IMG/VR virus record: IMGVR_UViG_2029527006_000005
Direction: 5' to 3' (one strand)
Source of the DNA: a virus
Taxonomy: Duplodnaviria; Heunggongvirae; Uroviricota; Caudoviricetes
Length of the DNA stretch: 64,000 bases
This document shows positions 48,065 through 56,504 of the stretch, piece after piece (position 1 is the first letter of the stretch; each line of letters opens with the position of its first letter). Position numbers and translations under genes: made by a program. The notes below the pieces were generated by a model. The model saw only the letters and a list, made by a program, of their open reading frames with translations. It was not told where the DNA came from and ran no database searches.

Positions 48065-49183
48065 TTATTTTTTGTGGATTCCTGCATTACGCTCTAGAGA
48101 TTTTAGGAAATCTAGGTCGTCGGAATCTAGTTCACTTTCTTTAATGATACCTTCACGGTTTCCGAGATGGACTTTACCTTCAGTGAGAGTATTTTTAGCC
48201 TGAGTATTAACTGCTGGACGGCTAGCTTTTGCAGCAGATTCGCTGATAGTACCTTTAAGCACTGGCTTATGATACTTCATGAAATCGTCTTTAAGTTTCT
48301 CAGTTGGAGTAGCTTTAAGTAGTGATTCCATAATTTGCTTCTGTTGAACAGTAAGAGGTTTCACAAGTTCAGAGATGATTGCATTACGTGCTTGGGTATC
48401 TTCCATGATACGCATTTTACGGTGTGCGGCATCTGCATCTGCTTTAGATTCTTGAAGTTCAACTTTCATGTTAATAACTTCTTGCTCTTTCTGCTTAATA
48501 GATTCGTTTAGAGAACGTAGGATTGAGTTTTCTTTGTATTGGTTGCTGTAGAATTCGTTAGCAAACGCTTCGAAAATTTTACGACCAAACATGTTTTGAC
48601 GTGCTTCACGCAACTCGGTTTTTAGCTCTTTTAGATTACTGTGAGTAGTCTCAGCAATATATTGAGCACTGGTTTCAGTAATACGCTTAATAACACTCTG
48701 ACGAGCTTCATTAATCTTCTGGGAACCTTCTGCAATTAATTTAACGCGAGTTTCAACTAATTGACGTTTCTCTTGGTGGAAGTCTTTAAGTTCTTCTGCT
48801 AGGATACGGTTTGAGAATCCTGCGAATTTATCTAGACTTTCTTTAACGAGTTTTGTCTCGTTACGCATTTGTTTTACTTCTTCTGCAAGTACACCGTTAG
48901 CGAAAGAACCGAAGTTTGCTAGGGTTTTACGTAGTGTAACGCGGTCTTCAACGAGTTTTGCTTTCTCGGTGTATACTGCACCCATTTCTTCAGCGATTAG
49001 TTCAGTTACCATCTTATCTAGACCTTCAGTTAGTCGGCCTAGGTCTTCTTGATAACGACCTTTCATTTCTTCACGCATTTCAGCGGCTACTGCTTGTTTT
49101 TCTTCATTCCATGCTTCCTGAATTAGCTGTTTCGCTTCGTCAGAAAGAGATGATTCTTTTAGAAACTTATCTAATTTAGACAT
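48065..49183 (-). CDS. gp22: Prohead core scaffold (gp22-like)
   Basis: Long coiled coil, GRKIFEAFA, between protease and MCP; start moved to 49183. Confidence 0.8.
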   Translation of the reverse strand: MSKLDKFLKESSLSDEAKQLIQEAWNEEKQAVAAEMREEMKGRYQEDLGRLTEGLDKMVTELIAEEMGAVYTEKAKLVEDRVTLRKTLANFGSFANGVLAEEVKQMRNETKLVKESLDKFAGFSNRILAEELKDFHQEKRQLVETRVKLIAEGSQKINEARQSVIKRITETSAQYIAETTHSNLKELKTELREARQNMFGRKIFEAFANEFYSNQYKENSILRSLNESIKQKEQEVINMKVELQESKADADAAHRKMRIMEDTQARNAIISELVKPLTVQQKQIMESLLKATPTEKLKDDFMKYHKPVLKGTISESAAKASRPAVNTQAKNTLTEGKVHLGNREGIIKESELDSDDLDFLKSLERNAGIHKK

Positions 49184-49230
49184 TATAATCTCCTGTAAAG
49201 TACTTAACATTCGTACTTTTGATGTACAAA

Positions 49231-49238
49231 TATTTATA
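49231..49238 (-). promoter_or_regulatory. T4-type late promoter TATAAATA
   Basis: Exact consensus. Confidence 0.7.
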
Positions 49239-49248
49239 AATTTTTTTG

Positions 49249-49875
49249 TTACCCTTTTAAATCTTTAAAAAAAGCGTGAATTTCGTTTTCTACACCATTT
49301 GATGATTTAGATTCCACTATTGCTGCTTTTTTACTACCACTAAGAGGTGAACCGTACTTACTCATAAGAGATTCAAATACCGCTGTTGGATACGCTTCTG
49401 GAGCACTCGGTTGTGCCACAATGTCAATAGTAACTATTTCAAAATCAGAAACAATGCCATTATGGTCTACGTTACCGGAACCACGCGAACTAACACCTAG
49501 TTTCACACCGCTTTCTAGCATTTTACGAATATTTTCACCATGTGCAGTTGGAAGTAGCTTAATTTCAGCCATTCCGTTTTTACCTTCCATCCAGACTTTA
49601 GTAATCATTGCTGCTACACGGTCTAAGTTAATAGTAAGGGTTTCAGGGTGATCACATTCACAAAGAATGCTCTCACCACTCATTAAGCGTTGGTTCATAT
49701 TTTCCACTGCGTGAGCAATTTCACTAAATGGATATATACGTTCGTTTTTATTTCGTTGGTCAGCTTGGATTGAAATACCTCTTAGGTAACAATCTTTACC
49801 ACCGAACGGATTATCACGGTGTTCTAGTACAATTTTAGAATCATTGAATGAAGACCACTCTCGAATCATGCTCAT
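49249..49875 (-). CDS. gp21: Prohead protease (gp21-like)
   Basis: NKNERIY, ECDHP, LDRVA, LGVSSRGSG, DIVAQPSAPEAYP. Confidence 0.93.
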   Translation of the reverse strand: MSMIREWSSFNDSKIVLEHRDNPFGGKDCYLRGISIQADQRNKNERIYPFSEIAHAVENMNQRLMSGESILCECDHPETLTINLDRVAAMITKVWMEGKNGMAEIKLLPTAHGENIRKMLESGVKLGVSSRGSGNVDHNGIVSDFEIVTIDIVAQPSAPEAYPTAVFESLMSKYGSPLSGSKKAAIVESKSSNGVENEIHAFFKDLKG

Positions 49876-52941: not shown

Positions 52942-55161
52942 TTAGGTTTGTCTTGCAGTTTCCGTGTTTTCGGAAATCTGACGAAGAAGCTGTGCCATTT
53001 GCTGTATATTGCTATTGTTTGCATCCGTTGCACCAACTAAAGATTTCAATTGTGCAAGCATTGCTTCATCATAGTTAAATAGCGGATCTGGAACTGCTGG
53101 AGTTTCTTCTTTCGCAGTGGCTTTTTTGGCTTCTTCTGAAATACGCTCAGGTTTATTTTGCGGTGGTTCCGCAAGTACAGGAGGTTGCTGGGGCTTATTA
53201 GCTGCAACAACTGTTTGCTGTTCCTTTGTAGCATTTGTATTTATAGTTGTCACCGGGACACCGTTTTTAGCTTGTTTTTTTGCTTCTTCTGGTACTGGAT
53301 CGTCACTAAACCAACTTTTCGCAGTATCCCACCAGCCACTAATAGATTTTTTCATATCTTCGAATGCATCTTGAATACGAGTCTTCATATCAGAGTAATC
53401 AAACTTAATGTTAGACAAAGAATCCCAAAAAGCATTAAAATCACCAAACATATTTTTGACGGTTCCTTGTAATTGCTCTTTAGATTTGTCCATATCACTT
53501 CCAGTTAACCAATCCCAAATTAATGAGCCTAAACGTGCTGGTAATTGAACTACATCACCCATGAATTTATCATATGCAGCTTTAACTGTATTAAATGCTT
53601 CATCACCTAGGATTATTTTACCTAATCTAGCGGGTAATTCACCAATAACACCAAACATGCCAGCCATTTTGCTATTAAAGTAATTATAAGCATCAGTAGA
53701 GATGTTAGCTAGTACATCAAATACCCCATCAGCATTCATTGTCATATCGCTTAGATATTTCATAGTGCTTAATTGAAGATTATTGTACATTTCATTAAAT
53801 GGTTGAGTAAATGTCTTGCTGATCCAGATATTGAAGTTGCTTGTGTACTGTTCTAGCTGTGCATTAGTCTTAGTATTGCTGTCATTGAATAGTTTTTCTT
53901 GGTTTTGAATCTGTGTTAGTAGTGCTGCTGCTTGAGTGTTGCCACTTCTCTGTTGAGAAATCAATTCCAAACGTAATTGTTCAGAGTGTTCCTTAACATA
54001 AGCCGCCATTGTCTCTCGAACTACCTTAGAATCGGTTACACCACTTCTTTGTAGGCTTTCCATCATGTCAGCATAGCCTTGCATGAACTGGTTATTGTAC
54101 TCATCAGGTAATTGGTATAAAGATAGCCTTGATGCGTTAATTTTTTGAAGAATATTACCAGTTTCACCCATACTAACGAACGCACTGTTCATAGCTTTGG
54201 TTACTTCTGCTGCTTTATCAGGATCAACACCCCAATTATCGGTCATTGCATATTGTGATACAGTACTGTCAAGTGTTTCACCCATAGAATCAAACTTACC
54301 AAGTAGTTCATCTACCGATTTACCGACAGATTTACTTAGATATGTCATCTGATTTACAAATTCTGCTGTACTACTAGCTTGATTTATACTTCTTAATGAC
54401 TCTTGAGTACCGTAAAGTTTCTGATACTTGAAGTTCTTAGCCGTAATATCAGCTAATTGCTGTTGTGATACCCCATAAATTCCATTTGCTTGTTGTAGAT
54501 CCTGTACTGAACCTAGTAAATTAGCAAAACTGCTTACACCATCACCGTACTGACCATCCATTGCTGCAATTGATTGACTGTTTTGTTGTAAAGCTGCGTT
54601 GAATTCGTTTAAACTCATGTAAGATTTACCAGAAGCAAGTCTTGCAGAGATCATGCCGTCACGCAAAGTCAAACCAGCACTGTTTAATTGGTTGTACATG
54701 TCTAATTGTTGGTTCATGTAGTCATAAACTTTCATACCTACGTCAACAATAGCCGTAAACGCCGTTGCAGCCGCTCCTACGGGGCCGGGAATCATTTTGA
54801 GTGAACTACCTAATGCACCAACACTCGTCCCTAGAGAGCCTACTACGTTCGCTGCGGAGGCACTATTACCGAGGGCAGTTCTTGAAATGTTTTTCATCTC
54901 TCCAAACATTTGCTTGAAGAATTTACCACCAGAGAAGTCAGGAGGTCTTGGACCACCACCTCTTCTTCGATCACCCGGTCCCGGAGGTGGATTCCCATTC
55001 CCCCCGCTACCTCCACTACCATTCTTTCCTTTACCTTTGGCAATTTGAATTTGAACTTTCAAACTATCAGCCAGTACTTCACGCATAGCAGTTAGGTGGT
55101 CATTGGCTTTTGTTTGTTCATTAAGCATTTGCTGCAAAAGGAAACTGTTATCAATTGCCAT
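52942..55161 (-). CDS. Probable tape-measure / baseplate hub protein
   Basis: 739 aa, largely helical, Gly/Ala/Gln-rich; divergent from the gp26-like gene. Confidence 0.5.
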   Translation of the reverse strand: MAIDNSFLLQQMLNEQTKANDHLTAMREVLADSLKVQIQIAKGKGKNGSGGSGGNGNPPPGPGDRRRGGGPRPPDFSGGKFFKQMFGEMKNISRTALGNSASAANVVGSLGTSVGALGSSLKMIPGPVGAAATAFTAIVDVGMKVYDYMNQQLDMYNQLNSAGLTLRDGMISARLASGKSYMSLNEFNAALQQNSQSIAAMDGQYGDGVSSFANLLGSVQDLQQANGIYGVSQQQLADITAKNFKYQKLYGTQESLRSINQASSTAEFVNQMTYLSKSVGKSVDELLGKFDSMGETLDSTVSQYAMTDNWGVDPDKAAEVTKAMNSAFVSMGETGNILQKINASRLSLYQLPDEYNNQFMQGYADMMESLQRSGVTDSKVVRETMAAYVKEHSEQLRLELISQQRSGNTQAAALLTQIQNQEKLFNDSNTKTNAQLEQYTSNFNIWISKTFTQPFNEMYNNLQLSTMKYLSDMTMNADGVFDVLANISTDAYNYFNSKMAGMFGVIGELPARLGKIILGDEAFNTVKAAYDKFMGDVVQLPARLGSLIWDWLTGSDMDKSKEQLQGTVKNMFGDFNAFWDSLSNIKFDYSDMKTRIQDAFEDMKKSISGWWDTAKSWFSDDPVPEEAKKQAKNGVPVTTINTNATKEQQTVVAANKPQQPPVLAEPPQNKPERISEEAKKATAKEETPAVPDPLFNYDEAMLAQLKSLVGATDANNSNIQQMAQLLRQISENTETARQT

Positions 55162-55171
55162 ATTAATTCCT

Positions 55172-55179
55172 TATAAATA
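55172..55179 (+). promoter_or_regulatory. T4-type late promoter TATAAATA
   Basis: Exact consensus; divergent AATAAATA at 55194-55201 on the - strand. Confidence 0.7.
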
Positions 55180-55214
55180 AAATTATATAGAATTATTTAT
55201 TATATGGAGTCCTT

Positions 55215-56090
55215 ATGAGTAAAATGAACCCACTCGCTAAGTATACTAAGATTGAAGAGATTTTTGTTAAACTAGCAAGTAACAACGTAGTAAAATACAA
55301 ACCTGAAGTACTAAAAAGTATTAAACTAGGTGTTTGTGCTCGTGCAGCACGTGATGAAATTATGCTTAACACACCAGATGCACTTATCGGAGGTGATGCA
55401 GTGATTAAAGTCATTGAGAACTGTGTTCCCGGTATTGAAGATGCTGGTGAGTTGTTTGTTAATGACGTAGAACAGCTTTTAATTGCAATTAAAGTTGCTT
55501 CTAAAGAAGAAGATTATGAGATTCAAACAAAATGTCCACATTGTGATCATGAAGGTGCATTCCATCGTAATCTACAAAATTTACTCGATACAATGAGCTA
55601 TTTCGATAAACAACCAATCGTAGAATTAGTAAATGGTCTAAAAGTTTATTTCAAACCTTATACATGGAATGAGTACAGTGATTTTGGTCAACGCATGTTC
55701 CAAGAGCAAAAGAAATCAGAAATGATTGATTTAATCGAAGGGGATGATGATGAGAGTACTGAACAGAAGAAGAAAATGTTCACTGAAGTATTTGAAGCGA
55801 TGACTCAACTTAACTTTGACATGATTGTTAAAAGTATTGAGAAAATTGAAACACCAGATGGTGATATTGTGGATAGTGCAGAATTTATTCTTGAATGGGT
55901 AAGTTCACTACCAAAAAGCACACTTAAAGAAGTACGTGAAGCATCTGATGAACTTCAAGAGATTGGTATCAGTCATAAAATGGAAGTGCAATGCTCTGAA
56001 TGTGATCATGAATGGGAAATCGACAAACTTCGTTATGACCCATCACATTTTTTCGGATTCAGCTTCTCATTGCCAAGCCAGAAGAAATAA
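55215..56090 (+). CDS. Baseplate hub assembly protein (gp26-like)
   Basis: NPLAKY, DEIMLNTPDAL, LLIAIKVAS, two CxxC pairs (CPHC, CSEC). Confidence 0.75.
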   Translation: MSKMNPLAKYTKIEEIFVKLASNNVVKYKPEVLKSIKLGVCARAARDEIMLNTPDALIGGDAVIKVIENCVPGIEDAGELFVNDVEQLLIAIKVASKEEDYEIQTKCPHCDHEGAFHRNLQNLLDTMSYFDKQPIVELVNGLKVYFKPYTWNEYSDFGQRMFQEQKKSEMIDLIEGDDDESTEQKKKMFTEVFEAMTQLNFDMIVKSIEKIETPDGDIVDSAEFILEWVSSLPKSTLKEVREASDELQEIGISHKMEVQCSECDHEWEIDKLRYDPSHFFGFSFSLPSQKK

Positions 56091-56266
56091 GACAAGTGTT
56101 GAGTGATATGGAACTCAATGTAAAAGAGATAAAGTCATCTCTTATGGAGATTTCTGTCTATATCACTAACACTTCCTATGAGATGCTACTCAATATGCCA
56201 ACAAATGAAAGAGACCTTCTGGTTCGTGCATATAACAAAAAAGTAACTAAAGAAAACAAATCATAA
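56054..56266 (+). CDS. gp51-like ORF in the -1 frame, probably reached by frameshift
   Basis: -1 frame open 56039-56266: FFRIQLLIAKPEEIRQVLSDMELNVKEIKSSLMEISVYITNTSYEMLLNMPTNERDLLVRAYNKK; slippery T TTT TTC at 56048-56054. Confidence 0.6.
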   Translation, partial: RIQLLIAKPEEIRQVLSDMELNVKEIKSSLMEISVYITNTSYEMLLNMPTNERDLLVRAYNKKVTKENKS

Positions 56267-56290
56267 CCAGCCTCTGTGCTTGGTTTTTTT
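56265..56290 (+). terminator. Intrinsic terminator
   Basis: AACCAGC...GCTTGGTT followed by T-run. Confidence 0.6.
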
Positions 56291-56504
56291 GTATCTTAAT
56301 TTGGGTAATAATCAATTATTGTATCTATCTTGTTTGATTAGCCAATCTTCGATTGTCTAAGAATTTTCAATTATTCATAACTCATTTCATTCGTTATTCA
56401 TAATTTCAATTCATTTCTAATTATTGAATGTACTTAATTGTACTTTATATCTTGACGAGATTTGCTGAGGTAATTTCATCCCCCCGCAGGGGAATGAAGA
56501 CAAT

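Follow-up and report, generated by a model that had tools for sequence, protein, structure and literature searches.

A probable programmed −1 ribosomal slip joins a gp26-like body to a gp51-like tail in Rak2-type jumbo phages

Xu, Hendrix and Duda (Mol Cell 2004;16:11-21) are said to have described a conserved −1 frameshift in the genes that encode tail assembly chaperones in long-tailed phages, the lambda pair gpG/gpGT included. Leiman et al. 2010 (PMC3004832) count T4 gp26 and gp51 among the hub assembly chaperones. Papers that cite Vladimirov, Gautam and Davidson (Virology 2022;566:9-15; PMID 34826709) credit that work with identifying gp26/gp51 as the TAC-N/TAC-NC of T4-like phages, and attribute to it both a two-gene arrangement and poly-T slip signals in the TAC-N genes of this group; a 2025 paper cites it on the −1 signals of 'TAC-N genes of T4-like phages', which it calls 'polyT-containing', and names T7 gene 10A/10B alongside as a known poly-T signal (PMC12846349). 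The initial annotation of the locus described here had called such an arrangement not generally recognised for T4-type gp26/gp51; as far as the 2022 work is represented by these sources, that statement is out of date. With the principle already published, the slip in Rak2-type genes is very probably a well supported, unannotated new example, and confirmatory in nature. Our search found no literature joining RaK2, a frameshift and a tail assembly chaperone, and the jumbo-phage papers examined mention no frameshift at this locus.

Judged by its sequence, the window (the whole stretch of DNA analysed, 64,000 nucleotides) is from a Rak2-type jumbo myovirus. Across 54900-56500 its DNA shares about 83% identity with Salmonella phages Munch, 7t3 and SE_PL and with Klebsiella phage fENko-Kae01, and 63–68% with 121Q/PBECO4, GAP32, CBB, BF and others. 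The features of the locus are collected in Table 1, in which the box ahead of the gp26-like gene is called late-promoter-like after the consensus of T4 late promoters. Within the gp26-like reading frame, the codons CAT TTT TTC GGA place T TTT TTC in the X XXY YYZ register of a slippery heptamer. The 0-frame stop, TAA 56088-56090, is the 12th codon past it, and the −1 frame is open from 56039 to 56266, so that products of 291 aa and of 350 aa (280 + 70, transframe) are predicted. The initial annotation had given 291 and about 350 aa and had placed the ORF, the heptamer, the −1 frame, an internal ATG at 56108 and the short motifs CTTCT and AGAAG (56080-56084); reading the sequence confirmed every one of these positions, and a GTG is present at 56096. 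Trypsin would release from the 350-aa form the junction peptide YDPSHFFR and then IQLLIAKPEEIR, whereas the 291-aa form would instead continue ...HFFGFSFSLPSQK. We also ran a null scan over the 72 ORFs of at least 100 aa in the window, looking for in-register XXXYYYZ heptamers and for a −1 ORF that reaches at least 20 codons past the 0-frame stop. There are 54 such heptamers, only two of which open such a −1 ORF; the slip-site observation is more than chance.

Table 1. Coordinates of the features at and beside the predicted slip site in the window.
Feature	Position	Strand	Remarks
T4-type late-promoter-like box TATAAATA	55172..55179	+	Upstream of the gp26-like gene; read in the sequence, putative function
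Shine-Dalgarno GGAG	55206..55209	+	5 nt ahead of ATG 55215; read in the sequence
gp26-like 0-frame ORF, 291 aa, predicted short form (TAC-N equivalent)	55215..56090	+	PF12322, phrog_150
Slippery heptamer T TTT TTC	56048..56054	+	0-frame register, P site UUU, A site UUC; read in the sequence
−1 frame extension, 70 codons + stop, gp51-like tail of the predicted 350-aa transframe product	56054..56266	+	phrog_18291, E 1e-28
Predicted transframe product	join(55215..56054, 56054..56266)	+	
0-frame tail past the slip site, 11 codons + TAA	56055..56090	+	Length and sequence vary among relatives; disordered in the model
CTTCT, 8 nt past the heptamer, Leu-Leu in the −1 frame	56063..56067	+	Invariant in 23 unique Rak2-type sequences
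Divergent neighbour, 739 aa, probable tape measure protein	52942..55161	−	phrog_14121, T4 gp29 match, RaK2 record

We propose that a programmed −1 ribosomal slip at T TTT TTC lets one gene yield both the 291-aa and the 350-aa protein, and we put the probability of this reading at about 0.87. Most ribosomes would stay in the 0 frame up to the TAA and make the 291-aa protein, the presumed equivalent of T4 gp26 (TAC-N). Some would slip back by one base with two Phe-tRNAs on UUU UUC (56049-56054); the tRNAs would re-pair on UUU UUU, the CGG at 56054 would be read as Arg, and reading would go on to 56266. The slipped product would then have 350 aa, its last 70 residues matching the C-terminal tail of T4 gp51 (TAC-NC). 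The sequences themselves show the slip signal and how it is conserved, −1 frame coding that begins ahead of any start codon, and a tail homologous to that of gp51; slipping itself, its efficiency and the chaperone role are inferred. In T7 gene 10A/10B, tRNA-Phe likewise slips by −1 within a stretch of U, but the product there is the capsid protein, which is unrelated to the proteins considered here and no chaperone.

For the conservation of the site we compared 13 Rak2-type records, 8 more distant records (PA5oct, Phosso, Atu_ph07, SCTP-2, RsoM2USA, Xoo-sp13, RaK2 and XaC1, with protein identity of only 22–30% for the first six), 15 IMG/VR loci and 9 loci of an uncultured (metagenome) clade that was reached via a distant family representative. 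In 46 of 46 loci an in-register heptamer stands at the FF that closes the PF12322 domain and is followed by a −1 ORF of 69–82 codons. It reads TTTTTTT, not TTTTTTC, in two loci (RsoM2USA and Xoo-sp13), and the run is T6 in the other 44. The heptamer and the next G are invariant among the 23 unique Rak2-type sequences. The codon ahead of the T-run always ends in T (CAT, AAT, AGT, CGT, GAT, GTT or GCT), and C would be synonymous for most of these. Past FF, the 0-frame tail has 1, 2, 3, 4, 6, 10 or 11 residues and shows no relation from one clade to the next; conservation is found in the −1 peptide, FFR..LL..PEEI, but not in the position of the 0-frame stop (1–12 codons past FF).

Nucleotide diversity by codon position follows the same boundary. 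Upstream of the heptamer, the 0 frame gives 0.28/0.24/0.45; directly downstream, the −1 frame gives 0.39/0.27/0.55, and for these downstream bases the 0 frame gives 0.25/0.54/0.41, a non-coding pattern. It is at the heptamer that codon periodicity moves into the −1 frame.

More widely, a phmmer scan of 1.84 billion cluster representatives returned 861 relatives. Across the best 150 of these 861, which are mutually below 50% identical, the match extends to about query residue 280. Because 140 of these best 150 end in FF plus 0–18 residues (mode 1), an ORF that stops just past FF is the rule in the family. A few family representatives (P0143, P0160, P0176, P0203, P0217 and P0234) end ...NPVNFS(TGS), not ...FF; these may use another slip signal or another direction.

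A weak stem between CTTCT and AGAAG had been suggested in the initial annotation to follow the heptamer. We reject it as a supported stimulator of slipping. RNAalifold gave no consensus structure past the heptamer in 19 sequences, the two arms pair in 85% of cases versus 81% when the partner is slid by +3 columns, and the 50 nt from +5 to +55 past the heptamer in the window have an MFE of −3.5 kcal/mol (z +1.3), so that the stem has neither covariation nor predicted stability. Covariation is in fact impossible for it, since its 5′ arm is invariant, and most of the invariance of CTTCT can be attributed to the −1 Leu-Leu and a Phe codon where the 0 frame is still open. Strong hairpins occur about 7 nt past the heptamer in PA5oct, Atu_ph07 and RsoM2USA (z −3.3 to −3.8; RsoM2USA −3.8). 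Given that no stable or covarying RNA structure follows the heptamer in the window and its Rak2-type relatives, slip efficiency there may be low.

The same sequences might be explained by two genes, the downstream ORF starting at GTG 56096, TTG 56099 or ATG 56108, or being reached by reinitiation past TAA 56090, with the heptamer as the mere Phe-Phe codons of a conserved motif. These start codons exist in the window genome and could also yield an independent small protein there, but the residues ahead of them are conserved and carry −1 periodicity. Among the 15 genomes whose first 12 codons of the −1 frame lack ATG, periodicity in that frame is 0.29/0.20/0.45 (permutation p about 0.01) and amino-acid identity is 64%, versus 47% in the 0 frame, which holds stops over the same stretch in some of them. 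Overlaps of the ATGA or TAATG type, which are typical of coupling, occur in several relatives, yet the position of the start is not conserved, the first ATG of the extension lying at codon 2, 3, 6, 13, 19, 31 or 48 among relatives, and the extension of PA5oct contains none of ATG, GTG and TTG. In most GenBank records a separate gene of 39–70 aa is annotated, and PHROGs has phrog_18291 for it, while the records of RaK2, PA5oct and RsoM2USA annotate nothing there. The two Phe codons are, moreover, always TTT TTC or TTT TTT after a T and never TTC TTT as in T4 gene 26, which because of this coding of FF has no slip run, and T4 gp51 has the same tail fused in frame. We consider two separate genes very improbable. 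The initial annotation had proposed a probable −1 slip fusing a gp26-like body to a gp51-like tail beside the tape-measure gene, and this reading is supported by the conservation of the heptamer and of the −1 frame and by the alignment with gp51: the heptamer is in register throughout the loci compared, the −1 residues upstream of Met56108 are constrained, and independent initiation at 56096-56108 is insufficient, as some relatives have no start codon of any kind.

The main rival left by the sequences is transcriptional slippage, in which RNA polymerase would add one U on T6 and a subpopulation of mRNAs would encode the same 350-aa protein. Either mechanism would give the same protein (H-F-F-R...), so a conserved T-run and a conserved −1 ORF cannot tell a transcriptional from a ribosomal slip. 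Efficient bacterial transcriptional slippage usually requires runs of about 8–9 or more, longer than the T6 of 44 of the 46 loci; the run is always in the X XXY YYZ register, and the hairpins of PA5oct, Atu_ph07 and RsoM2USA have the layout of a ribosomal stimulator. At the slip site the run is T9 in RsoM2USA and T7 in Xoo-sp13, whose extensions begin FFF or FFY; these runs are closer to the known slippage-prone lengths, and transcriptional slippage is more plausible in these two phages than in the genomes with T6. Overall we regard it as quite improbable. Homopolymer runs are also error-prone on some sequencing platforms, and the true gene could in principle be a single 350-aa ORF broken by a sequencing or assembly error, but the same T-run and frame break recur in 46 loci, which stem from independent isolates and from metagenomes sequenced across more than ten years, and this makes the chance of such an error next to negligible.

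Under the programmed ribosomal slip, the two predicted products can be compared with T4 gp26 and gp51. The 291-aa protein is a member of PF12322, T4_baseplate (E 1.3e-28, 100.6 bits against a cut-off of 24.5); residues 16-280 match positions 4-218 of the 219 in the profile, with the match stopping precisely at the second Phe of ...DPSHFF, residue 280. It also matches phrog_150, baseplate hub (8.6e-31). Its two CxxC pairs (C107, C110, C260 and C263) are invariant or nearly so in sets of 14 and 109 sequences and align with Cys pairs of T4 gp26 and gp51. Both T4 proteins are full-length PF12322 members (8.8e-64 and 3.9e-52) and are thus paralogs; their genes, 26 and 51, which encode 208 and 249 aa, lie side by side in divergent orientation upstream of 27-28-29. 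While gp26 ends ...EFFELL, gp51 goes on for about 48 residues past ...DVFKLL, and in a MAFFT alignment this tail falls on the jumbo-phage −1 extension. When a profile of 20 reconstructed transframe products was compared with a gp51 profile of 29 homologs (hhalign), positions 48-350 aligned with 31-256 of 257 (E 3.9e-6, probability 87%), unbroken across the junction and colinear to both C-termini. In this overlay FFr..LL..PEEI falls on iFkLLlnPDEiF and sYE.LLNM..eR on Y.L.SIM.MiPiER. A profile of the extension alone matches the gp51 C-terminus with E 0.0038 over 33 columns. From the paralogy within PF12322 and these alignments, the 0-frame product would correspond to gp26 and the transframe product to gp51.

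The likeness to T4 therefore includes PF12322, the four-Cys pattern, a short form that ends at FF like gp26, a long-form tail colinear with that of gp51 (..F.LL..P[ED]E[IV].. and ..Y...M..ER..) and a gene that adjoins hub and tape-measure genes; T4 also departs from the same-strand gene arrangement of lambda. However, T4 has two diverged, divergently transcribed genes with no T-run at FF where there is here one gene with a −1 slip, and the jumbo-phage domain is about 70 residues longer. One chaperone pair would be made from two paralogous genes in T4 and from one recoded gene across a very wide T4-related range, which would offer a clean natural experiment on the need for a fixed short:long ratio. 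The last three residues of T4 gp26 (...EFFELL) resemble the start of the −1/gp51 tail (FFR..LL, VFKLL; L022:3803-3830). This resemblance suggests that T4 gene 26 may descend from a long-form copy truncated past LL, not from a 0-frame short form.

If the analogy to T4 gp26/gp51 and to lambda G/GT holds, a role that draws on T4 genetics and on the 2022 work, the short and long forms would be non-virion chaperones that act at a fixed short:long ratio in the assembly of the baseplate hub and of the tape measure, the latter presumably being the 739-aa neighbour. The virion peptide table of CBB contains CBB_247 and CBB_251 and not the homolog CBB_250, in line with what a chaperone would show, although absence from such a list is weak evidence. 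In the records of PA5oct and fENko-Kae01, the neighbour, and not the gp26-like gene, is flagged as found by mass spectrometry.

The 739-aa neighbour is a probable tape measure protein. It matches phrog_14121, a virion structural protein family (1e-218), weakly matches the tape-measure family phrog_1535 (E 0.0011), and matches the C-terminal part of T4 gp29 (BLASTP, E 3e-4). Tape-measure clusters stand at 0.93 among its language-model neighbours, which is a lead only, and the GenBank record of RaK2 notes tape-measure similarity. The CBB homolog was found in virions with 29 peptides (PMC5259590). A gp20-type portal gene is the next gene on the strand of this neighbour. The gp26-like gene adjoins the probable tape-measure gene on the opposite strand and is transcribed away from it. 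Directly past the −1 stop TAA 56264-56266, the window holds an imperfect hairpin (AACCAG..CTTGGTT) followed by seven T (56264-56292); the consensus scan left it unflagged, and it looks like the terminator of the transcription unit, placed past the extension and not past the 0-frame stop.

This arrangement bears on the lambda-like G/GT architecture put forward in the initial annotation, which holds in part. As in lambda, two products with a common N-terminal body, one with a short extension, are predicted from a gene beside the tape-measure gene, and a short/long pair from a conserved −1 frameshift is found here at the sequence level. The gene is, however, divergent from the probable tape-measure gene and not upstream of it on the same strand, whereas in lambda it lies between the tube and tape-measure genes on one strand. 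The heptamers also differ (U UUU UUC here, G GGA AAG in lambda), and the body here, about 280 aa long, includes a Zn-ribbon-like site of four Cys and a long helical hairpin. AlphaFold2, given 109 sequences, modelled the 291-aa form with pLDDT 94 and pTM 0.89 as a mixed alpha/beta body with a long helical hairpin at 151-207, the four Cys close together and residues 285-291 disordered. The predicted fold matched no solved tail assembly chaperone: Foldseek against the PDB gave no match below E 0.19, VIA-align over 48,161 chains gave only generic helical hairpins at residues 145-211 (Z at most 8.5), and a sequence-profile search against PDB sequences found no solved relative of the gp26-like protein. 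With a body of this size, the four-Cys site, the helical hairpin and no detectable fold match to solved chaperones, it is tempting to speculate that the gp26/gp51-type pair is an analogue and not a homologue of lambda G/GT, having reached short and long forms by an independent −1 slip that in Rak2-type phages would work without an RNA structure, aided only by the invariant TTTTTTCG and perhaps by CTTCT 8 nt downstream. We hold this to be unlikely.

None of the 21 GenBank jumbo-phage records inspected has a joined CDS or a slip annotation at this locus, and the fENko-Kae01 record, like those of RaK2, PA5oct and RsoM2USA, is without an annotated ORF downstream. In practice the finding matters most for annotation: in RaK2, 121Q/PBECO4, GAP32, CBB, BF, Munch, PA5oct, Atu_ph07 and others, the small ORF past the 'baseplate hub' gene is very probably the frameshifted tail of the long form and not a separate gene. 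In the fHe-Yen9 phages (e.g., Yersinia phage fHe-Yen9-03) the gp26-like gene is annotated 'Lead, cadmium, zinc and mercury transporting ATPase', a wrong label that evidently goes back to the CxxC motifs.

The second −1 ORF in the null scan starts from T TTA AAA at about 49255-49261 (−), two codons ahead of the stop of the prohead protease gene (49249-49875), and its −1 frame enters the next gene (48065-49210, phrog_10922). We rejected a protease-scaffold fusion by slippage at this site: in GAP32 and PBECO4 the next gene is in another frame and the −1 frame closes after 4–8 codons, and we attribute the candidate to chance. The spacer between the two genes (49211-49248, −, in the window) has a TATAAATA and, past it, an inverted repeat, ..CTGTACATCAA.AGTACAG.., both conserved among the window, GAP32 and PBECO4; the layout resembles a late promoter and a 5′ leader that contains a hairpin. 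Since the downstream gene in relatives starts past a GGAG further on, ATG 49210 in the window may not be the true start.
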